Of a DNA stretch of 64,000 nt, positions 6,754 through 61,358 are shown piece after piece. Every line of letters begins with the position of its first letter. The stretch's first letter is position 1. The position numbers and the translations under genes were made by a program. Source of the DNA: Minisyncoccota bacterium (lineage in GTDB: Bacteria > Patescibacteriota > Minisyncoccia > Phycocordibacterales > Zambryskibacteraceae); NCBI GenBank assembly GCA_036517475.1, contig DATDVZ010000009.1:14524-78523 (forward strand). The letters run 5' to 3'. Under the pieces are notes generated by a model. The model saw nothing but the letters and a program-made list of their open reading frames with translations. It was not told the DNA's origin and did no database searches.

Positions 6754-7608
6754 ATGAAATTTATCTTCTTCGGTACAACTGATTTTTCTATAAAAATTCT
6801 TGAGAAACTCAAGGAGAAAGATTGGTTGCCAAAATTAATTGTCACAAAAGAAGATAAACCCAAAGGAAGGAATCTCACTTTGACTGCCCCAGCCGTTAAG
6901 ATGTGGGCAACTACTAACAACATTGACTACTTACAACCGACAACACTTAAGAACACCGAATTCATAAAGAATCTGTCAGTTGTTAGTTGTGAGTTATATG
7001 TTGTTTGTGATTTTGGTAAAATAATTCCAAAAGAGGTTCTAGACATACCAAAACACGGAGTTATTAACGTCCACCCTTCCCTTCTGCCAAAACTTCGTGG
7101 CGCTTCCCCCATTGAAAGCGCAATACTTTATGAAAATGAAACGGGAGTTTCAATAATGAAAATGGACGAGGAAATGGACCATGGACCAATACTTTCACAA
7201 AAGAAAGTTATAGAGTGGCAATCTGATAATCCTCCGTATGCAGGAGTTTTAGAGAAAATTTTAGCTGAAGAAGGAGGAAACCTTCTTATTGAGACACTGC
7301 CAAAATATTTAACAGGAGAAATCAAACCCACAATACAAGATGAAAACAAAGCAACATTCACAAAGAAAATAATAAAAGAAGACGCCTTAATAAATCTTGA
7401 GGAGAGCCCCCAAGACAATCTAAGGAAGATCAGGGCATATCATATTTGGCCGAGAGCTTACATATATTTTGAATCAAAAGGAAAAAAAATAAGGACAATA
7501 ATTTCAAAGGCAAAAATTGATAATGGTGAACTGGTTATAGAAAAAGTTATACCTGAGGGGAAAAAAGAGATGGATTTTATTGATTTTAAAAACGGCTATT
7601 TGAGATAA
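6754..7608 (+). CDS. fmt: Methionyl-tRNA formyltransferase
   Basis: The Fmt HPSLLPKLRGASPIESAIL motif and N-terminal formyltransferase fold pattern are present. Conserved def-fmt synteny. Confidence 0.92.
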   Translation: MKFIFFGTTDFSIKILEKLKEKDWLPKLIVTKEDKPKGRNLTLTAPAVKMWATTNNIDYLQPTTLKNTEFIKNLSVVSCELYVVCDFGKIIPKEVLDIPKHGVINVHPSLLPKLRGASPIESAILYENETGVSIMKMDEEMDHGPILSQKKVIEWQSDNPPYAGVLEKILAEEGGNLLIETLPKYLTGEIKPTIQDENKATFTKKIIKEDALINLEESPQDNLRKIRAYHIWPRAYIYFESKGKKIRTIISKAKIDNGELVIEKVIPEGKKEMDFIDFKNGYLR

Positions 7609-7631
7609 AGTAATTCGTTGTTAGTTGCTCG

Positions 7632-7699
7632 CCCTGTTAAATAACCCAGCACTTAGTAAGCTAAGTGCTGGGTTCCCGCATTAGCGGGATTTAACAGAG
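7632..7699. repeat. Nested-palindrome micro-element, copy 1 (CCCTGTTAAATAA-[hairpin]-TT-CCCGCattaGCGGG-ATTTAACAGAG)
   Basis: Same framework as 41118-41173 with a different inner hairpin. Lies downstream of fmt. Confidence 0.55.
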
Positions 7700-7859
7700 T
7701 AAATTGTTAGTTGTTTGCTACTGGAATTACAGGATAATATGAGGCCTGAACTTTTTCCTCTGTTTTAACAAGAAATTGCAATATCAAAATCAGCCCGAGA
7801 ATGCCAATAAGAATTCCTAATGATATTTGTGAATTGATTTTTTTATTGAGGTCCATATT

Positions 7860-11583: not shown

Positions 11584-11598
11584 TTTTGTAACACTTAC

Positions 11599-11632
11599 AA
11601 CATTCCAACATTCTGCAGAATGTTGGAATGTT
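11599..11632. repeat. 34-bp perfect palindrome aacattccaacattctg|cagaatgttggaatgtt (twin of 30585-30620)
   Basis: Perfect dyad. The second copy differs only by a compensatory C/G to T/A pair. Confidence 0.7.
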
Positions 11633-12347
11633 GTTTCAATTTGACTTTCTCGCAAAGATAGTTAGTCTTTTTTCAGAAACTTGCAGAGAGACGGGTTTGC
11701 CAAGAAAATTATATATTGCTCTGGATACAGAGGCTGCGGGTCCCGAGTTGGGAATTCATAGCACCATTTCAATTGGAGCCGTAGTAATAACTCGTGACTT
11801 GCTTAAATACAGGGATTACGAGGAAAGAGGCTGGGTCTTTTATTCTGAATTAAAACCTCTTTCATATAGATTTTCAGCTGAAGCAATGAAAATTGCATGC
11901 TCTCAACTTGACTGTATTCAGGAAAGCTGGGAAGTCAATCCTGTATTTGTCACAGGGCACAAAGATTTCAAACCTGATTTAGTCCTTAAACTAATGAGAA
12001 AGATTTGTCCGCATCCAGATGCTGTAATGCGACAGTTTTACAATTGGATTCAGGAAAGAAGAGTCGAAGCAAGCGCTGAAGAAATAGTCGGCGTAACTGA
12101 TACTGTATTTTTTGACAGTGGCAGAATAAGTCTACTATTCGGTCAGCATTGCCCATTTCCGTCTCCTTTTGGATGGAGGGGGCTTGATTTGACTTCTCTT
12201 TTCAAAGGGTATACCGGATTGCCGGATGCAAGTTTGTCCGAGCTAGGAGTTCCAGATATACGTGAGAAACCCCATAGGGCAGATCATGACGCAGTTTATC
12301 TTGCACAGATGGCAAGAAAACTTTTGTTTGAAACACTTGGATGGTAA
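11628..12347 (+). CDS. DEDDh-family 3'-5' exonuclease (DnaQ/RNase T-like fold)
   Basis: Exo I motif LYIALDTEAAG. Exo III motif HRADHDAVYLAQM (H-x4-D). Strong terminator at 12346-12384. Confidence 0.7.
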   Translation: MLFQFDFLAKIVSLFSETCRETGLPRKLYIALDTEAAGPELGIHSTISIGAVVITRDLLKYRDYEERGWVFYSELKPLSYRFSAEAMKIACSQLDCIQESWEVNPVFVTGHKDFKPDLVLKLMRKICPHPDAVMRQFYNWIQERRVEASAEEIVGVTDTVFFDSGRISLLFGQHCPFPSPFGWRGLDLTSLFKGYTGLPDASLSELGVPDIREKPHRADHDAVYLAQMARKLLFETLGW

Positions 12348-20133: not shown

Positions 20134-20328
20134 ATGAAAATCTGCCCAGAGAGGATGCAAAAGGATTTATCTGAAGCAGCTCAACTCAAAGGTTGGCCAA
20201 TTGAAGATGCTTGGCAAAAAGTAATTAAAGTAGCGACAATACTCCAAATTCCTCCTGAAGAAGCTCTAGCTTTTATTCTGGAAAATGCAAAAGTAATGAA
20301 GAGGCTTGAAACCCAAGCGAACCAATAA
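20134..20328 (+). CDS. Small hypothetical protein (64 aa)
   Basis: GGGGGT SD-like element 6 nt upstream. The hairpin CGAACC-aataa-GGTTCG followed by T7 comes after the stop. Confidence 0.45.
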   Translation: MKICPERMQKDLSEAAQLKGWPIEDAWQKVIKVATILQIPPEEALAFILENAKVMKRLETQANQ

Positions 20329-20472
20329 GGTTCGTTTTTTTATTTATTTGACAGGATTCACCCTGTCGAATCCTGCTTTGCAGGAACTCCATAAAATGGA
20401 GTTATTTGACAGGGTGAACTCTAGTTCACTATAATATTAACCTACAACTTACAACCAACAACTAACTACAGA

Positions 20473-21738
20473 ATGCCGAAACTTTTGTCTATAAGAAATC
20501 TGCCGAAAGCTATTCTTCATATTGATGGAGACTCATTTTTTGTAGCAGTTGAAGTTTCAAAAAATCCCAAATTGCGAGGTAAACCAGTCGTGACGGGAGA
20601 GGAGAGAGGAATTGCCTCTGCCCTATCATATGAAGCAAAGGCTCTCGGGCTCATCCGTGGCACGCCAATTTACCAAATCCGCAAAAAATTTCCGCAGGTC
20701 ATAGTACTACCGGGAGATTATGAAAGTTATGAAATCTATTCGCAAAAAATGTTTGACATCGTACGCCGATATACAGACACAGTGGAAGAATATTCAATTG
20801 ATGAATGCTTTGCGGATTTAACCGGCTGGCGCAAGCCCTTAAAAATGACATATTTGCAAATTCTAGAAAATGTAAAGAAAGATATTCGCAATGAATTAGA
20901 CATTAGTGTCTCGGCAGGCCTTGCACCAAACAAAGTTCTGGCAAAAGTTGCTTCTAATTGGCAAAAACCTGACGGTCTTACAATAATTCCGGGCCGCCTA
21001 TCTCATAAATATTTACAGAAAACTGCCATAGAAAAAATCTGGGGAATTGGGCCAAATACGTCAGAATTCTTGAAGAAAAAAGGAATTAAAACTGCATATG
21101 ATTTTGCAATTAAAGATGAGAATTGGGTAAAAAATAACCTTACAAAACCATTTTTTGAAATTTGGGGGGAACTTAACTGCCAAGAGGTTTACAAAATTAA
21201 TCCAATACCTAAGGAAACTTACGCCTCAATACAAAAGACTAGAACTTTTACTCCCCCATCATCTGACAGATCATTTTTAATTTCTGCTCTTTCAAAAAAC
21301 CTGGAGGAAGCCTGCGCCAAAGCAAGGGCGTATAACCTAGCAGCTAAAAAAATTTCATTTTTCCTTAAAACCCAAAGTTTCTCCTTTCGCACTTCACTGA
21401 TTACATTTGATTCTCTACTTAACTTGCCGGAGATGATAATGCCTGCCATAAGAGAAGAATTTGACAAGATTTATGTAAAAAGTGAACTGTATAGGACTAC
21501 TGGGGTTATTCTTCAGGATTTAACCGATCAGAAAATTTCACAGCTTGATTTATTCGGCGAAAACGAAAAACAAGAAAAATTCAAAGTAATACATGAACAA
21601 ATTGATAATTTGCAGGCAAAACATGGAAATAAAATAGTGCATCTGGCATCTACTAACACTGCCCTAATCCGCCAACTGGCGGATAAAAGAAGCGGGACTG
21701 AAATAAAGAATGATGGAAGAGATCTATTGTTTCTGTAA
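20473..21738 (+). CDS. dinB: Y-family DNA polymerase IV (DinB)
   Basis: ILHIDGDSFFVAVE has the catalytic Asp residues, and SIDECFADLTG, together with the little-finger region, matches the Y-family. Confidence 0.9.
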   Translation: MPKLLSIRNLPKAILHIDGDSFFVAVEVSKNPKLRGKPVVTGEERGIASALSYEAKALGLIRGTPIYQIRKKFPQVIVLPGDYESYEIYSQKMFDIVRRYTDTVEEYSIDECFADLTGWRKPLKMTYLQILENVKKDIRNELDISVSAGLAPNKVLAKVASNWQKPDGLTIIPGRLSHKYLQKTAIEKIWGIGPNTSEFLKKKGIKTAYDFAIKDENWVKNNLTKPFFEIWGELNCQEVYKINPIPKETYASIQKTRTFTPPSSDRSFLISALSKNLEEACAKARAYNLAAKKISFFLKTQSFSFRTSLITFDSLLNLPEMIMPAIREEFDKIYVKSELYRTTGVILQDLTDQKISQLDLFGENEKQEKFKVIHEQIDNLQAKHGNKIVHLASTNTALIRQLADKRSGTEIKNDGRDLLFL

Positions 21739-24064: not shown

Positions 24065-24437
24065 TTTCACCCAACACCATTTTTAATTAATTTAGTAATT
24101 AATTAAAATAATAAATAAATTATTAGATAAAATTTATAATCCTACATCCATAAAAATAGTGCTGGGTTCATACCTTCTTCATTGAGAGCTGTTAAAATTT
24201 TTACTGGAAACCAGAGCAGTACTCTGGCATTAGAAGTCTAATAAAACACTATGTGATAAAAAGAAATTAAGATGTTTTTATATTGTTAGGAGAAGTGATG
24301 AGGGTCCTGTTTTAAAAGAGCGGGACTCTCATTACTTCTCTTAAACCAAAATTTCAACTCTCTTGTCAGAGTTTTTTTTGTAATTTACCCCGTGAGATAA
24401 TTATCGTTAATATTTATGCCATTGCATTGCGCAATTA

Positions 24438-24465
24438 TATCTCATGGGGTATACCCCGTGAGATA
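24438..24465. promoter_or_regulatory. 28-bp palindrome TATCTCATGGGGTATACCCCGTGAGATA (operator-like) in the 500-bp pilB upstream region
   Basis: Near-perfect dyad. Half-site copies lie at 24386-24399 and 24547-24562, the latter 12 nt before the pilB ATG. A related palindrome lies at 55407-55430 upstream of dnaE. Confidence 0.55.
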
Positions 24466-24573
24466 AAAATCAGTTAGTTATCTGAATGCTTATTTTAAAT
24501 TAAATAATAAAATAATAAATATATATAGGTAGTTATTGCAAATAAATATCTCACGGGGTATATTTTGTTGAAT

Positions 24574-30581: not shown

Positions 30582-30584
30582 ACA

Positions 30585-30620
30585 AAACATTCTAACATTC
30601 TGCAGAATGTTAGAATGTTT
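30585..30620. repeat. 36-bp perfect palindrome aaacattctaacattctg|cagaatgttagaatgttt (twin of 11599-11632)
   Basis: Perfect dyad centred on CTGCAG. Sits between convergent genes (29717+ and rpoD-). Confidence 0.7.
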
Positions 30621-31814
30621 TTAGTATCCGCGCAAGCGATTTATCTTCTCGTGTTGTCGGATTTTTTCATGTGCCTTTGCTTCAATCTGGCGGATTCTCT
30701 CACGAGTAACACCGAATACTTTACCTACTTCTTCAAGAGTGTGAGTATAGCCATCAGTTAGCCCGTGTCTCATTTCAAGAATTTTTCTCTCTTTTGGCGG
30801 TAGGTCAGTTAAAATTTCCTTGACTTGATCGGCAATAATTCGATGAGAGGCTTCCTGATCTGGAGAAAGGATTTTATCATCAGGGACAAAATCCCCAAGT
30901 TTGCTTTTCCCATCATCATCATCTCCCACCGGTGTCTCAAGCGAGACTGTGGCCTGATCAATTTTTTCAATATTATAAATTTTTTCTACTTCCAAATTCA
31001 TTTCAACAGCAATTTCTTCCGGCAGAGGGTCTCTGCCTAAATCCTGCGTGAGTCTTCTTACGACTTGCTTGTATTTGGCAATTGTTTCAACCATGTGCAC
31101 CGGCACCCTGATTGTGCGGGACTGATCAGCCAAGGCTCTGGTTATCGCCTGTCTTATCCACCATGTCGCATAAGTTGAGAATTTAAAACCCTTTGTCCAG
31201 TCAAATTTATCAACCGCCTTGAACAACCCCAGGTTTCCTTCTTGAATCAGATCAAGAAGGGTCAGATCTGGGCTTCTACCGACATATTTTTTGGCAATTG
31301 AAACAACCAATCGCAAGTTGGCCCGGGCCAGAAGATTTTTTGCTTCTTCATCCCCTTTTTCAATCCTTCTAGCAAGTTCTTTCTCCTGCGAGCCGGCAAT
31401 GAGGGGGTACTGGCCAATCTCTTTGAGGTACATTTGGATAGAATCATAGGATGAATCACCTTTGTACTCGTATTTTTTGCCCAGTAAATCTTCTTTTTCA
31501 TGAGGCATCTCCAAAAGCCCGCCACCTTCTAAAATATCAATACCGGCTCTATTTAATTTTTCATATAAATCCTCTAGAAAAAAAATATCCTCCTCAATAT
31601 TGGGAAATTCCTTCAAAATCTCATCATATGTGACAAAACCTTTTTCTTTGCCTTTTAAAGTCAGACGATCAACTTTAGAATCAACTTCCCCAAGTTTAAC
31701 ACTTGCTGGTTTTTTTAATTTTGGAAAAACTTTCTTTACTAAAGCTTTCTTTGGTTTTTTCAAAGGTTTGCTCTTTTTTATTTTCCTTACCTTTGTTTTT
31801 TTAATTTTTTTCAT
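30621..31814 (-). CDS. rpoD: Primary RNA polymerase sigma factor (RpoD/SigA) with Lys-rich N-terminal extension
   Basis: Regions 2-4 are conserved, including DLIQEGNLGLFKAVDKFD, TYATWWIRQAITRA and the 4.2 HTH. Confidence 0.93.
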   Translation of the reverse strand: MKKIKKTKVRKIKKSKPLKKPKKALVKKVFPKLKKPASVKLGEVDSKVDRLTLKGKEKGFVTYDEILKEFPNIEEDIFFLEDLYEKLNRAGIDILEGGGLLEMPHEKEDLLGKKYEYKGDSSYDSIQMYLKEIGQYPLIAGSQEKELARRIEKGDEEAKNLLARANLRLVVSIAKKYVGRSPDLTLLDLIQEGNLGLFKAVDKFDWTKGFKFSTYATWWIRQAITRALADQSRTIRVPVHMVETIAKYKQVVRRLTQDLGRDPLPEEIAVEMNLEVEKIYNIEKIDQATVSLETPVGDDDDGKSKLGDFVPDDKILSPDQEASHRIIADQVKEILTDLPPKERKILEMRHGLTDGYTHTLEEVGKVFGVTRERIRQIEAKAHEKIRQHEKINRLRGY

Positions 31815-40719: not shown

Positions 40720-41454
40720 TTACCTTTTTTTACCTTTCCACATTTCAATTTTCTTATGATGTCCAGAAAGTAATACTTTAGGCACTTTATAAGATTTTCC
40801 TTTGTACTTTAGGACTTCCGGTCTTGTATATACATCCGAGGAAGAAATGCGTCTTTCTTCAAGAGAGTCAAATTTACCCAATACTCCTTTAATCTGCCTT
40901 GAAACTGCATCCATTACTATCATTGCTGGTAATTCCCCTCCAGTTAAAACAAATGGCCCAACTGAAATTTCTTCCACTTTATAAATTTTCTTAACCCGTG
41001 CATCTATGCCTTCGTATCGTCCGCAAATAATAATTAAGTCAGAAAATTTTTGTGAATAATTTTTTGCTATTAAATTTGTAAATTGTTTCCCAGAAGGGGT
41101 AAGCCAAATTATCTTTACCCTGTTAAATAATTTCACCTTTGGTGAAATTCCCGCCTTGCGGGATTTAACAGGGTGATTTTTAAATTTTGATTTTGCAAGC
41201 GCTACTTCTATCGCTTTAATAACCGGCAGCGCTTGCACGACCATCCCCGGCCCTCCCCCATAAGGTGGCTTATCAATTCGTATTGCTCTCGGGGGCCTGC
41301 CCTGTAGGAAGCTTCGCTTTCCTACGGGGACATAGTCCCGGGGGTTATAGAAATTAACTTTAATTTTCTTATCTTCAATTGCACGTTTAATTATGGATTC
41401 GCCCAAATATGACTCAAAAGCCTTGGGAAATAGGGAAATAATATGGAATGTCAT
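40720..41454 (-). CDS. trmD: tRNA (guanine37-N1)-methyltransferase TrmD, carrying an in-frame palindromic insertion
   Basis: SPOUT-fold motifs PYGGGPGM and CGRYEGID are present with the C-terminal domain. Start assigned to MTFHIISLFP. About 19 extra codons correspond to the repeat 41118-41173. Confidence 0.88.
   Translation of the reverse strand: MTFHIISLFPKAFESYLGESIIKRAIEDKKIKVNFYNPRDYVPVGKRSFLQGRPPRAIRIDKPPYGGGPGMVVQALPVIKAIEVALAKSKFKNHPVKSRKAGISPKVKLFNRVKIIWLTPSGKQFTNLIAKNYSQKFSDLIIICGRYEGIDARVKKIYKVEEISVGPFVLTGGELPAMIVMDAVSRQIKGVLGKFDSLEERRISSSDVYTRPEVLKYKGKSYKVPKVLLSGHHKKIEMWKGKKR
41118..41173. repeat. Nested-palindrome micro-element, copy 2, in-frame within trmD
   Basis: CCCTGTTAAATAA-tttcacctttggtgaaa-TT-CCCGCcttgGCGGG-ATTTAACAGGG. 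It encodes the insert KSKFKNHPVKSRKAGISPKVKLFNR, which is absent from canonical TrmD. Confidence 0.6.
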
Positions 41455-43055: not shown

Positions 43056-43263
43056 TTCGGTTTTTTATTAACAGAAAATCCCGCTTAAGCGGGATTTTCT
43101 GTTAATAAACGAGAACTTTAATTTTTTCACAATTAGCGTAGTTACAATTACAAATTACGATTTTTTTAGCAAAATTCAACTGTTTGACGAGCATGCGGGC
43201 AGTTTCAAATTTTGCGTTAAAAAATGAGTTAATTTGTTTGTAACGAAGCGTTACGTGAAAAAA

Positions 43264-44584: not shown

Positions 44585-44717
44585 GTAATTTCTCCACTTC
44601 TTAAAATAAAATCGAATCCAGACGTTTTATACCATAAATAAAACTGAAATCCAATAGTAAAATGCGCTTATATAAAGCAAAGAAATTTGATATAAATTTG
44701 ACATAAAATACACATTA

Positions 44718-44749
44718 TTAACATTTTATACGATCGTATAAAATGTTAA
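44718..44749. promoter_or_regulatory. 32-bp perfect palindrome ttaacattTTATACGATCGTATAAaatgttaa immediately upstream of the wHTH/Cas2-like regulator gene
   Basis: Perfect dyad 11 nt upstream of ATG 44760. Probable autoregulatory operator. Confidence 0.6.
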
Positions 44750-44759
44750 TATTCAAACA

Positions 44760-45279: not shown

Positions 45280-45319
45280 AATGTTAACAAGTTATACGAT
45301 CGTATAACTTGTTAACATT
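45280..45319. promoter_or_regulatory. 40-bp perfect palindrome aatgttaacaagTTATACGATCGTATAActtgttaacatt in the RNase R promoter region
   Basis: Perfect dyad 38 nt upstream of the rnr ATG. Same core as 44718-44749 and 1447-1480. Confidence 0.6.
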
Positions 45320-52192: not shown

Positions 52193-52240
52193 AAACCCCG
52201 AGATTGCAATTGCAATCTCGGGGTTTGCCTTTTTATATTC
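52193..52240. terminator. Bidirectional terminator with 14-bp perfect palindromic stem (CCCCGAGATTGCAA|TTGCAATCTCGGGG)
   Basis: Perfect dyad flanked by A-run and T-run. Located between the 51905 ORF (+) and rnc (-). Confidence 0.7.
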
Positions 52241-55406: not shown

Positions 55407-55430
55407 TCATGGGGTATGCCCCGTGAAATA
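55407..55430. promoter_or_regulatory. Palindrome CATGGGGTATGCCCCGTGAAATA, relative of the pilB-region operator, upstream of dnaE; second half-site TTATCTCATGGGGTATAATG at 55466-55486
   Basis: 24 nt nearly identical to 24442-24465. The proximal half-site embeds a TATAAT box 17 nt before the dnaE ATG. Confidence 0.55.
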
Positions 55431-55502
55431 CAGATAATATGAGTAAGAATTGTAATATGGGAATCATTATCTCATGGGGTATAATGTGCCCATAATTTTA
55501 CT

Positions 55503-59426: not shown

Positions 59427-59567
59427 TTTGCTATCCCTATAAAAATCTAAGTAAACATTATCATAATTCTCAATAAATTAAACTGTGGTAGGATAATTGT
59501 TACCTGTCCCGTTAGAATTAACGGGCAAAATCAAATCTAGCATCTATAATTTTAAATAACCCCAAAG

Positions 59568-61358
59568 ATGCCAAAGCTTAAGAAAAATAACGGGAATTCT
59601 AATGGGATGGCTGATCAAAAACTATCCAACTTAAGGCATTCTTTGTCCCACCTTTTGGCCGCCGCCGTAAAGGAAATCTACCCTGATGCTAAGCCAACTT
59701 TAGGCCCGGCTATTGAAAACGGTTTTTACTATGATTTTGACGATTTAAATATTTCAGATGGTGATCTGCCAATAATTGAGGCAAAAATGAAGGAGATTCT
59801 CCCTTCATGGGAAAAATTTGAGGGTAAAGAAATTACAGAAGAAGAAGTAAGGAATTATTTCAAAAATAATCCATATAAATTAGAACTTATAGATGAAATT
59901 TTAAGCAAAGGAGAAAAAATAACTCTTTACACATCGGGTCCGCCAACTGGCGGATTTACAGATCTCTGCCGCGGAGGACATATTGATAATCCTTCAAAAA
60001 TAGATCCAAGGTCTTTTAAACTTTCCCATATTGCCGGAGCATACTGGAGGGGGAATGAAAAAAATAAAATGTTAACCCGCATTTACGGTCTTGCTTTCAG
60101 CACAAAAGAAGAGTTGAAGGAGTATCTCAAAATGCAGGAAGAGGCAGAAAAAAGAGACCATCGCATACTTGGCAAGGAATTGGGGTTATTTATTTTTTCT
60201 GATCTCGTTGGTCCGGGACTTCCGCTTTACACTCCGAAAGGTAATGTATTAAGAAATGAGATTGTTAATTTTTCTCGTGAGCTCAATAATAAAATCGGTT
60301 ATGAAGAGGTCCACACACCCAATATTAACAAAGCGGAACTTTTTAAAATTTCAGGCCATTATGAAAAATACAAGGAAGACATGCTTGAGGTTAAAACACA
60401 TTACAGCAAAGAGGAATATTTCCTTAAACCAATGAACTGCCCACAACATACTCAAATCTATGCTTCGCAAACTCGAAGTTACAGAGATTTACCCATAAGA
60501 ATTGCTGATTTTGCAAATCTTTACCGTGATGAAAGGCCGGGTGAACTTTCTGGTTTGACAAGGCTTCGCTACTTTGCCCAAGACGACGGGCATTGCTTCT
60601 GTACAGAGGAACAGATTGAAGAGGAATTTTTAAAAATTCTCGGAGTTGTTGAGGAAGCTCTCAAAACTTACAAAATGCAATATACGATCTGGCTTTCTTT
60701 GAGAGATCTTGCCAAAAAGGAAAAATATGTCGGAACAGATGAAGTTTGGGAAGACGCAGAAGAAATATTGCGAAAGATTCTCAAAAAGCAAAAAATTAAT
60801 TTTATAGAAAAGGAGGGAGAGGCCGCTTTTTACGGGCCTAAAATGGATATTGTCGTTAAAGATGCAATCGGCAGAGAGTGGCAGATTTCAACAATACAAC
60901 TTGATTTTAATATGCCAGAAAGATTTGGCTTGAAATTTGCCGATCATGATGGTAAAGAGAAAACTCCAATTATGATTCATCGCGCTCTAGTTGGTTCTCC
61001 TGACAGATTTCTTGGAATTCTAATTGAGCATTACGCTGGAGCATTTCCAGTTTGGCTTTCTCCTATCCAGGTGAAAATTTTACCAATCGGAGAGGCTCAT
61101 CAAAAATTTGCCCAGCAAATTTTTGATGCATTAAAAGAATCAGGCATAAGAGCAGAATTAGATGACAGTAATGAAACACTTGGCAAAAAAATACGAAATT
61201 GGAAAATTGAAAAGATTCCATATGCAATAGTAATCGGAGATAAAGAAGTTGAATCCAAAAAAATTAAAGTTGAATCTCGCGATAAAGGAGATTTGGGACA
61301 AGTATCATCTGAAGAATTTACAAAAAATTTAAAAGAAGAAATATCTGATAAGAAATAA
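59568..61358 (+). CDS. thrS: Threonyl-tRNA synthetase
   Basis: Class II aaRS motifs, the ThrRS zinc-binding catalytic core and a C-terminal anticodon-binding domain. Confidence 0.93.
   Translation: MPKLKKNNGNSNGMADQKLSNLRHSLSHLLAAAVKEIYPDAKPTLGPAIENGFYYDFDDLNISDGDLPIIEAKMKEILPSWEKFEGKEITEEEVRNYFKNNPYKLELIDEILSKGEKITLYTSGPPTGGFTDLCRGGHIDNPSKIDPRSFKLSHIAGAYWRGNEKNKMLTRIYGLAFSTKEELKEYLKMQEEAEKRDHRILGKELGLFIFSDLVGPGLPLYTPKGNVLRNEIVNFSRELNNKIGYEEVHTPNINKAELFKISGHYEKYKEDMLEVKTHYSKEEYFLKPMNCPQHTQIYASQTRSYRDLPIRIADFANLYRDERPGELSGLTRLRYFAQDDGHCFCTEEQIEEEFLKILGVVEEALKTYKMQYTIWLSLRDLAKKEKYVGTDEVWEDAEEILRKILKKQKINFIEKEGEAAFYGPKMDIVVKDAIGREWQISTIQLDFNMPERFGLKFADHDGKEKTPIMIHRALVGSPDRFLGILIEHYAGAFPVWLSPIQVKILPIGEAHQKFAQQIFDALKESGIRAELDDSNETLGKKIRNWKIEKIPYAIVIGDKEVESKKIKVESRDKGDLGQVSSEEFTKNLKEEISDKK

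Follow-up and report, generated by a model that had tools for sequence, protein, structure and literature searches.

The stretch of DNA analyzed here, called the window below, is 64,000 nt long and carries three copies of a short palindromic element, one within the gene for the tRNA methyltransferase TrmD and two between genes. The copies and the features beside them are as follows:

6754 to 7608, plus strand: fmt-like gene upstream of copy 1 (from the ORF list; the name fmt is that of the earlier note)
7632 to 7699, plus strand: copy 1 of the three-way-junction element, in orientation A (from the sequence and a covariance-model match), composed of left arm 7632-7642, AA 7643-7644, hairpin 1 7645-7672, TT 7673-7674, hairpin 2 7675-7688, and right arm 7689-7699
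20338 to 20356, plus strand: solitary partial arm TTATTTATTTGACAGGATT, directly adjoining copy 3 (from an arm scan)
20357 to 20418, minus strand: copy 3, in the opposite orientation, missed by the earlier note (covariance-model match)
40720 to 41454, minus strand: trmD, encoding tRNA (guanine37-N1)-methyltransferase (244 aa, ATG at 41454), which hosts both copy 2 and the second palindrome
41116 to 41175, minus strand: copy 2, the 60-nt (20-codon) trmD insert, with its core CCCTG..CAGGG at 41118-41173 (covariance-model match)
41300 to 41329, minus strand: second TrmD palindrome, in the mRNA CCCCGTAGGAAAGC-GAA-GCTTCCTACAGGG, within the extra loop VPVGKRSFLQGRPP

The earlier note had described one framework common to copies 1 and 2, and the sequences at 7632-7699 and 41118-41173 confirmed it. 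Copy 1 reads CCCTGTTAAATAA, a 12-bp hairpin with a 4-nt loop, TT, CCCGC-ATTA-GCGGG, and ATTTAACAGAG, and copy 2 reads CCCTGTTAAATAA, TTTCACC-TTT-GGTGAAA, TT, CCCGC-CTT-GCGGG, and ATTTAACAGGG. The small hairpin, given as CCCGC-N4-GCGGG, has the 4-nt loop in copy 1 (ATTA) but only 3 nt in copy 2 (CTT). Copy 1 is intergenic, with the fmt stop codon (7606-7608) on one side and the stop codon of a possible 49-aa minus-strand ORF (7707-7856) on the other, so that it would sit between convergent gene ends. The peptide of this possible ORF has a hydrophobic core (MDLNKKINSQISLGILIGILGLILILQFLV..), and a few bases separate the end of the ORF from copy 1. Copy 3, read on the minus strand as TTCACCCTGTCAAATAA-CTCCAT..ATGGAG-TT-CCTGC-AAA-GCAGG-ATTCGACAGGGTGAA, is also intergenic, between a 64-aa ORF (20134-20328, plus strand) and a Y-family DNA polymerase gene (20473-21738, plus strand). 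It shows compensatory changes both in the outer arm (CTGTTAAAT/ATTTAACAG to CTGTCAAAT/ATTCGACAG) and in the small hairpin (CCCGC/GCGGG to CCTGC/GCAGG), and the partial arm next to it looks like the remnant of a tandem neighbor.

A covariance model built from unrelated genomes recovered all three copies, with 85.7 bits for copy 2 (41113-41178), 65.5 bits for copy 3 (E 2e-14), and 55.6 bits for copy 1 (7627-7704, E 6e-12), the E-values ranging from 1e-19 to 6e-12. Folded as single-stranded DNA, each copy formed the same three-way junction, with z-scores against shuffled sequences from -7.8 (copy 3) to -10.6 (copy 1, -28 kcal/mol). The arm 9-mer occurred 6 times in the window against an expectation of 1.1. 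The likeness of the window copies is far beyond chance.

To describe the family, we searched a set of genomes, one for each species, for the framework pattern and took 123 copies from the matches listed. Their consensus is ttyaCCCTGTTAAATAA-[hairpin 1]-TT-[CCNGC-N3-GCNGG]-ATTTAACAGGGtraa, in which terminal inverted arms of 11 to 15 bp (TTYACCCTGTTAAAT / ATTTAACAGGGTRAA) enclose two hairpins. The structure thus comprises an outer arm stem, a variable hairpin closed by AA/TT, and a 5-bp GC hairpin, and it can fold from either strand. Measured from CCC to GGG, the commonest length is 58 nt; counting one flanking base at either end gives 60 nt (20 codons), and the full arms bring the total to approximately 66 nt. 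Bases outside the searched pattern were also conserved (CC/GG, A/T, and TT/AA), which extends the arms to approximately 15 bp. The fourth flank position was systematically unpaired (T.G or C.A), so that the two ends of the element differ (TTTAC versus TTCAC).

In the 57 gap-free copies, the three helices join without any unpaired junction base, 95.3% of cells are paired, and 15 of the 29 pairs change on both sides (114 cells). None of 500 shuffles matched these pairing values, and sliding the partners reduced pairing to only 26 to 49%. The arm columns were fixed by the search pattern, and the covariation is therefore informative for the two hairpins and the flanks only. The hairpins vary between copies of one genome with pairing still at approximately 95%, and those of in-gene copies are paired as well (approximately 95%) as those of intergenic copies. 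An Rfam scan of the window at gathering level gave a tRNA as its sole match and none on the element; at E-value level, the best match on the element was mir-1991, sub-threshold at 21.8 bits versus a cutoff of 66.

The identity of the gene that hosts copy 2 was supported by homologues carrying PF01746 and by matches to TrmD structures in the PDB (E about 3e-36), and these homologues place the source organism in Parcubacteria/Patescibacteria. Apart from the same organism, the closest TrmD is only about 67 to 72% identical. TrmD orthologues without inserts are 214 to 221 aa long, versus 244 aa here. An alignment of 30 orthologues placed the additional residues at two sites, one after NPRD(Y/F) and the other between ..AIExAL.. 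and ..KIIWLxPxGKQ. The peptide HPVKSRKAGISPKVKLFNRV was present at the second site in the window TrmD alone and was absent from the 29 aligned orthologues; without the 60 nt at 41116-41175, the loop has its canonical length. The earlier note had put the in-frame insert at about 19 residues. It is in frame, but it measures exactly 20 codons, namely, HPVKSRKAGISPKVKLFNRV, and the neighboring KSKFKN, which the note had counted in, consists of TrmD's own residues. The loop lies between a helix ending ..AIEVALAKSKFKN and the strand KIIWLTPSGKQ, and solved TrmD structures have gaps at both insert sites. In an AlphaFold2 model, pLDDT fell below 50 at residues 47 to 71 and 95 to 109 with a confident core; the mean pLDDT was only 71, so the model shows merely that the inserts lie outside the conserved fold and nothing more. 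Both the alignment and the structure model had been proposed as checks in the earlier note, and both came out in its favor, with an insert that is absent from the orthologues, has exact 60-nt boundaries, and falls in a low-confidence loop.

The second palindrome within trmD, which the earlier note had set beside the first as a similar element, is real but does not count as a further copy of the element. Imperfect (z -2.8), it coincides with an insert of approximately 11 residues relative to insert-free orthologues and solved structures. A homologue of this hairpin in the closest orthologue (P0002, at locus L120) shows the compensatory exchange G>C / C>G, and the arm type of the palindrome, CCCCGTAG(G/C)AA, recurs at 48 metagenome loci, which differ in context and include in-frame cases in long ORFs. 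On these two grounds, we assign the palindrome to a distinct but related dispersed hairpin family. Other TrmD orthologues have different inserts at the same two loops, which indicates that the loops are recurrent landing or retention sites. The insert DNA in four orthologues is palindromic (e.g., AGGATTTAAGATTTAAGAAT..ATTCCTAAATCC) or consists of tandem heptamers (CGCTACA x4), and it resembles intergenic hairpins of the same four genomes. The trmD genes of these orthologues are located as follows:

L117, 3001 to 3729: orthologue trmD
L118, 3001 to 3843: orthologue trmD
L119, 645 to 1397: orthologue trmD
L120, 3001 to 3693: orthologue trmD

The element is widely dispersed. A search for the framework in other genomes, another check suggested in the earlier note, yielded at least 116 further loci (one genome per species), often on many contigs per MAG. 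Among the matches listed, the majority were Patescibacteria MAGs, three independent MAGs were from Omnitrophota (many contigs each), and a few were labeled Saccharibacteria, Gammaproteobacteria, or Cyanobacteriota. These phylum labels come from record titles only. The flanks of the locus labeled Cyanobacteriota (L048, RA.bin105) match those of a Patescibacteria locus from the same study (L040, RA.bin89), with one base of the element differing, and the Cyanobacteriota label is probably a binning error; the match means that labels from record titles need caution. The covariance model detected approximately 135 distinct copies in 100 loci, and 3 in the window. The same pattern had no match in 2.9 million viral contigs, leaving no identified vehicle for transfer between phyla.

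Searches with the peptide returned little. A profile of the doubled 20-aa peptide (40 columns) gave only 5 candidates, and a 30-aa segment from the window gave only 2 matches at E <= 0.001 among 1.84 billion representatives, a 20-aa match being under-powered. One of the two, the 693-aa protein P0123, contains two in-frame element peptides, HPVKSDEVGISPKAKLFNRV at residues 337 to 356 and DPVKSREAGIPPEEELFNRV downstream at about residue 570; the other, P0124, was set aside as an unrelated repeat protein. A full-text literature search for the arm strings, the peptide, and palindromic elements of these phyla found nothing relevant, although it covered few subscription journals and an earlier description is not excluded. 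Exact-string matches, such as that in the Picrophilus plasmid pPO1, were a primer and its target and are irrelevant.

By a simple ORF map, 40 of the 123 copies taken from the matches listed lie inside ORFs, and 37 of these have the orientation of the trmD mRNA (orientation B). A stricter criterion, which required 150 nt or more of open frame on either side, retained 30 copies. Most of them (24) use one phase of orientation B and encode the peptide (H/Y)PVKSRKAGISPKAKLFNR(V/A), i.e., (H/Y)PVKS..LFNR(V/A). These main-phase copies are 55, 58, 61, 67, or 70 nt long, all 1 mod 3, so that the frame is kept once one flanking base per side is counted. Five others use a second open phase (phase 0; TLLNPAK..NYLTG), three of which are 56 nt long and shift the frame within the element; among these three, only the host ORF at L008 has a homologue in the window. 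The last of the 30 is in orientation A. The remaining frames of the element contain TAA or TGA, and all in-gene copies found were without stop codons.

The host genes are full length and belong to unrelated families: RpoC (RNA polymerase beta'), RpoD (sigma-70), class I tRNA synthetases, PheT, TrmD, TsaE, KsgA, TatD, a DEAD-box helicase, GTP-PEPCK, a Mur ligase, a pseudouridine synthase, TGT, GatA, GatB, PPDK, and MiaB-MiaA. The question raised in the earlier note of whether other proteins carry in-frame copies is thereby answered with at least 23 more, in unrelated families. In TsaE, a copy occupies one site in three genomes, with hairpin sequences that are different yet paired. The RpoC of the window itself shows a clean gap of 19 to 22 residues versus its element-bearing orthologues, and an unidentified 790-aa protein of the window likewise shows a clean gap of 19 to 22 residues at the element. 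Six-frame inspection of the seven intergenic copies nearest to flanking ORFs revealed no split gene, and none of the 123 main-family copies was found to interrupt a tRNA among 12,300 deletion variants. We infer that the in-gene copies are translated and tolerated, in the absence of RNA or protein data.

Whether the structure is maintained in DNA or in RNA can be addressed, to a degree, from the copies themselves. Between co-directional genes, intergenic copies showed no orientation bias (27 versus 26). Mismatches of the G.T and A.C types were balanced in hairpin 1 (13 versus 14) and hairpin 2 (5 versus 5), and they remained so when the copies were oriented by the transcribed strand. Because the mismatch counts are small, these observations are only suggestive of a constraint at the level of DNA rather than RNA. 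Such a constraint may reflect recognition of a folded single strand or a cruciform, or self-correction of the palindrome by template switching.

We also looked for traces of insertion. Other genomes contain tandem arrays in which successive copies overlap by about 4 nt (..CAGGGTGAACCCTG.. or ..CAGGGTTCACCCTG..), short forms with one hairpin, and long forms with extra modules. At L047:3940-4075, a full copy is nested in the hairpin 1 loop of another copy, a hint that hairpin loops may be insertion targets. The flanks of the element are inverted, not direct, and direct repeats of 2 to 5 nt at offsets of 0 to 8 were not clearly above those of shuffled partners, giving no evidence of a target-site duplication. 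No arm pair was found around a transposase-sized ORF in approximately 0.7 Mb around known copies, and clustering of 1189 ORFs around copies for a partner transposase gave housekeeping families only, the largest being the type IV pilus ATPase.

Further families, among them that of CCCCGTAG(G/C)AA, share an arm design of (TTYA or GCTTG)CCCYGT plus 5 to 6 nt. We observed two others in the window and elsewhere, at the following positions:

24386 to 24450, window: second arm family, TTTACCCCGTGAGATAA .. TTATCTCATGGGGTA
24452 to 24560, window: second arm family
55409 to 55484, window: second arm family
L001, 4439 to 4500: second arm family
59508 to 59606, window: third arm family, CCCCGTTAGAA .. TTCTAACGGGG
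L001, L017, L018, L028, L039, L089, L090, L099, L104, L106, L112, L113, and L114: loci with the third arm family

The second family (CCCCGTGAGAT, window 24386-24560 and 55409-55484) has the same design as the main element with other arm bases; two of its copies lie in tandem and overlap by GGGGTATACCCCG, and one copy was detected weakly by the covariance model (23.7 bits). The third encloses 10 to 100 nt of variable, unrelated cargo and is often flanked by GCTTG/CAAGC or TTYA/TRAA.

A separate arrangement, observed in four MAGs, is a "tRNA within tRNA," in which a disrupted tRNA gene contains, within inverted arms, a complete tRNA gene of the same type:

L103, 1190 to 1490: nested tRNA genes, arms TTCACCCCGTTAGAT
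L094, 7780 to 7950, minus strand: nested tRNA genes, arms TTCACCCCCACACC
L041, 6190 to 6395, minus strand: nested tRNA genes, arms TTGCCCGCC
L078, 1880 to 2130, minus strand: nested tRNA genes, arms TCCCGCACC

The cases comprise Val in Lys-like in Val-like (in the anticodon loops), Ala in Ala, Met in Met (in the T-arm), and Leu in Leu, and at L103 the arrangement is nested twice. Their arms differ from case to case and start with a TTCACCC-like or related sequence. Taken with the nested tRNA genes, the related arm families point to a larger system that has yet to be described.

The window contains other palindromes as well. Its perfect hairpins with a stem of at least 9 bp are intergenic in 27 of 32 cases, though 86% of the window is coding. 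Long perfect intergenic palindromes form two sets (1446-1481, 44716-44751, and 45280-45319; 1540-1577, 11597-11634, and 30584-30621), one centered on TCGTATA/TATACGA and the other made of AACATTC/GAATGTT units around CTGCAG or similar. After a terminator-like hairpin, a 46-nt perfect palindrome at 43064-43109 (TTTATTAACAGAAAATCCCGCTT/AAGCGGGATTTTCTGTTAATAAA) contains the element-like pieces GCGGGATTT and CTGTTAA and scores weakly with the covariance model (22.3 bits). A short intergenic palindrome at 52193-52226 (AAACCCCGAGATTGCAAT/ATTGCAATCTCGGGGTTT) has arms, CCCCGAGAT, that resemble those of the second arm family. The long perfect hairpin at 61098-61128 lies inside an ORF and was rejected as an insert; it falls in what is presumably the conserved anticodon-binding region of a class II synthetase.

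We consider these data best explained by a mobile, or formerly mobile, miniature palindromic element that resembles the Rickettsia palindromic elements (RPEs) and is translated where it is tolerated, and we put the probability of this reading at roughly 0.7. The dispersal of the element, its fold and covariation, its in-frame bias, and its absence from orthologues were observed directly, and its spread by transposition is inferred. The family would spread, or would have spread, as DNA into the spacers and genes of Patescibacteria and Omnitrophota. Within genes, copies would survive only in the stop-free orientation and phases and at lengths divisible by three, and the survivors would be translated, mostly into the basic peptide (H/Y)PVKSRKAGISPKAKLFNR(V/A), in permissive surface loops. 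In the window, one copy would have landed in a TrmD loop and the other two between genes. Mobilization may depend on a trans-acting transposase that recognizes the folded single strand or the arms, like REP/RAYT or IS200/IS605-derived elements; we prefer this mechanism on weak support, no such enzyme having been identified. Several observations count against a mobile element, namely, that neither a target-site duplication nor, around known copies, an autonomous element with the same arms or an enriched neighbor family was detected, the occurrence of the same arm sequence in two phyla, which is unusual for MITEs, and the absence of matches in viral contigs. In addition, the steady pairing of the hairpins in in-gene copies and in the same-site TsaE copies may indicate that a host function is under selection and that the copies are not just tolerated.

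This last point leads to the alternative that survives best, though we hold it to be unlikely, in which the element is a structured motif of the host and not selfish DNA. Its arms and junction would be the binding or processing site of a conserved host protein, with a role in, e.g., nucleoid organization, recombination, or RNA processing or stability, and the in-gene copies would be co-opted or maintained. Such a motif would account for hairpins that differ within a genome yet stay approximately 95% paired, inside genes as between them, for the TsaE copies with their different but paired hairpins, for an arm sequence shared by MAGs of two phyla, and for the frequent proximity of copies to gene ends (a few to about 80 nt). 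However, palindromes can self-correct by template switching, which could keep the arms paired without any function. Copies are found in over 20 proteins with no relation to each other, and between genes they occur in arbitrary settings and without orientation preference, closely related orthologues differ in presence or absence, and the tandem and nested copies look like insertion events. An RNA role, in particular, is argued against by the lack of wobble asymmetry, and the consensus flanks have no T-run and hence form no intrinsic terminator.

The nested tRNA genes give rise to a bolder and still less probable proposal, in which CCCYGT..ACRGGG arms mark a new class of elements processed by the host or by an enzyme rather than ordinary selfish repeats. 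It rests on the outer tRNAs, which may be either dead genes with the cargo in their place or precursors that mature once the insert is removed. In one version, the arms could bound a protein-dependent, helix-bounded intervening sequence excised from RNA, the 60-nt in-gene copies being the subset that is harmless when unprocessed; in the other, the three-way junction could be a recognition module conserved across phyla of ultra-small bacteria.

That the element itself is an intervening sequence, removed from the RNA or bypassed by the ribosome so that the 20 residues are missing from the mature protein, appears very doubtful. The related arm-bounded inserts do interrupt tRNA genes (L103, L094, L041, and L078), where a retained insert would destroy the tRNA, and the compact junction could plausibly serve as a recognition structure. 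Yeast mitochondria are also known to have short palindromic inserts that translation bypasses. However, the in-gene copies are free of stop codons, and the 24 main-phase copies keep the frame in a single orientation, a bias expected only if the copies are translated. The seven intergenic copies nearest to ORFs were not accompanied by a split gene, not one of the 123 main-family copies interrupts a tRNA, there is no Rfam ribozyme or intron match, and the trmD codon before the element (AAT) and the last codon of the element (GTA) do not form a matched take-off/landing pair. Finally, a chance resemblance, with the TrmD segment as an ordinary lineage-specific loop expansion containing an incidental palindrome, could draw on the great variation of TrmD orthologues of the clade at the same two loops but is refuted by the covariance-model E-values (1e-19 to 6e-12), by the 116 or more further loci, and by the identical peptide in unrelated proteins.

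Palindromic repeats kept in frame in many unrelated genes had been documented at high frequency mainly in Rickettsia. The same behavior is now seen in ultra-small bacteria that are free-living or episymbiotic; the element here is much smaller, has a defined three-way-junction fold, and is present in MAGs from two or more phyla. It partly explains the odd lineage-specific loops in TrmD, RpoC, RpoD, and tRNA synthetases of Patescibacteria, its simple DNA signature lets annotators recognize such inserts, and its copies serve as natural "insertion scans" that mark permissive loops of essential enzymes. It also raises the questions of which enzyme moves a 60-nt element without target duplication and why the fold stays intact in coding sequence.

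Compared with known systems, the element behaves as the earlier note had supposed in calling it REP/MITE-like and tolerated within an essential gene, and all of the checks suggested there came out in favor, but no target-site duplication, partner transposase, or REP-type GTAG head was found. Like the element, MITEs (e.g., Correia/NEMIS, ERIC, RUP, and Nezha) are small, non-coding on their own, and present in many copies with terminal inverted repeats, and they occasionally form in-frame fusions with host ORFs. Of the features that define MITEs, terminal inverted repeats in many dispersed copies are met (arms of 11 to 15 bp, at least 116 loci), whereas target-site duplication is not; furthermore, no parent insertion sequence was found around known copies, the element is shorter than typical MITEs, and its hairpins covary rather than drift. 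With the REP/BIME/REPIN elements of RAYT systems, it shares short palindromes, a fold partly conserved over sequence, the lack of target duplication, and tandem or clustered copies, and recognition as folded single-stranded DNA is plausible for both. REPs, however, are extragenic by definition and have a GTAG-type head, whereas one third of the copies of the element are intragenic (40/123) and its head is CCCTG. The loci retrieved showed no RAYT gene, and ORF clustering, which did not cover whole genomes, gave no candidate. We therefore file the element neither as a MITE, for want of target duplication, nor as a REP, for want of an extragenic location and the GTAG head.

Bypass inserts, i.e., the byps of Magnusiomyces mitochondria and the insert of T4 gene 60, are likewise short palindromic mobile inserts in coding genes, but they are untranslated and break the frame or bear stops, whereas the in-gene copies here are always open and the main phase keeps the frame. 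We rejected a translational bypass element on this ground and for the unmatched AAT and GTA codons in trmD. An intrinsic terminator was also rejected, as the flanks are GGGTRAA(T/C) without a T-run and in-gene copies in full-length ORFs are hard to reconcile with termination. An integron attC site has the inverse core RYYYAAC at the 5' end of its hairpin and the core GTTRRRY at the 3' end; the element has GTTAAAT and ATTTAAC in the opposite order on both strands and is not an attC site. The arm resembles TTATGTTAAAT, which we take to be the XerD half of dif, but the element is not a full dif site.

The closest likeness in behavior is to RPEs. These are palindromes dispersed both between genes and, with unusual frequency, in frame within unrelated housekeeping genes, where the peptide is thought to lie in surface loops (PMC10969869). 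The element also lies in frame in unrelated ORFs with a conserved peptide (24 copies, unrelated Pfam families). RPEs are about 100 to 150 bp long, form ten families, and are confined to Rickettsia, whereas the element has 60 nt and a perfect three-way junction and is found in MAGs labeled Patescibacteria and Omnitrophota. It is not known to have sequence similarity to RPEs. We file the element as a member of no named family, the RPEs included.
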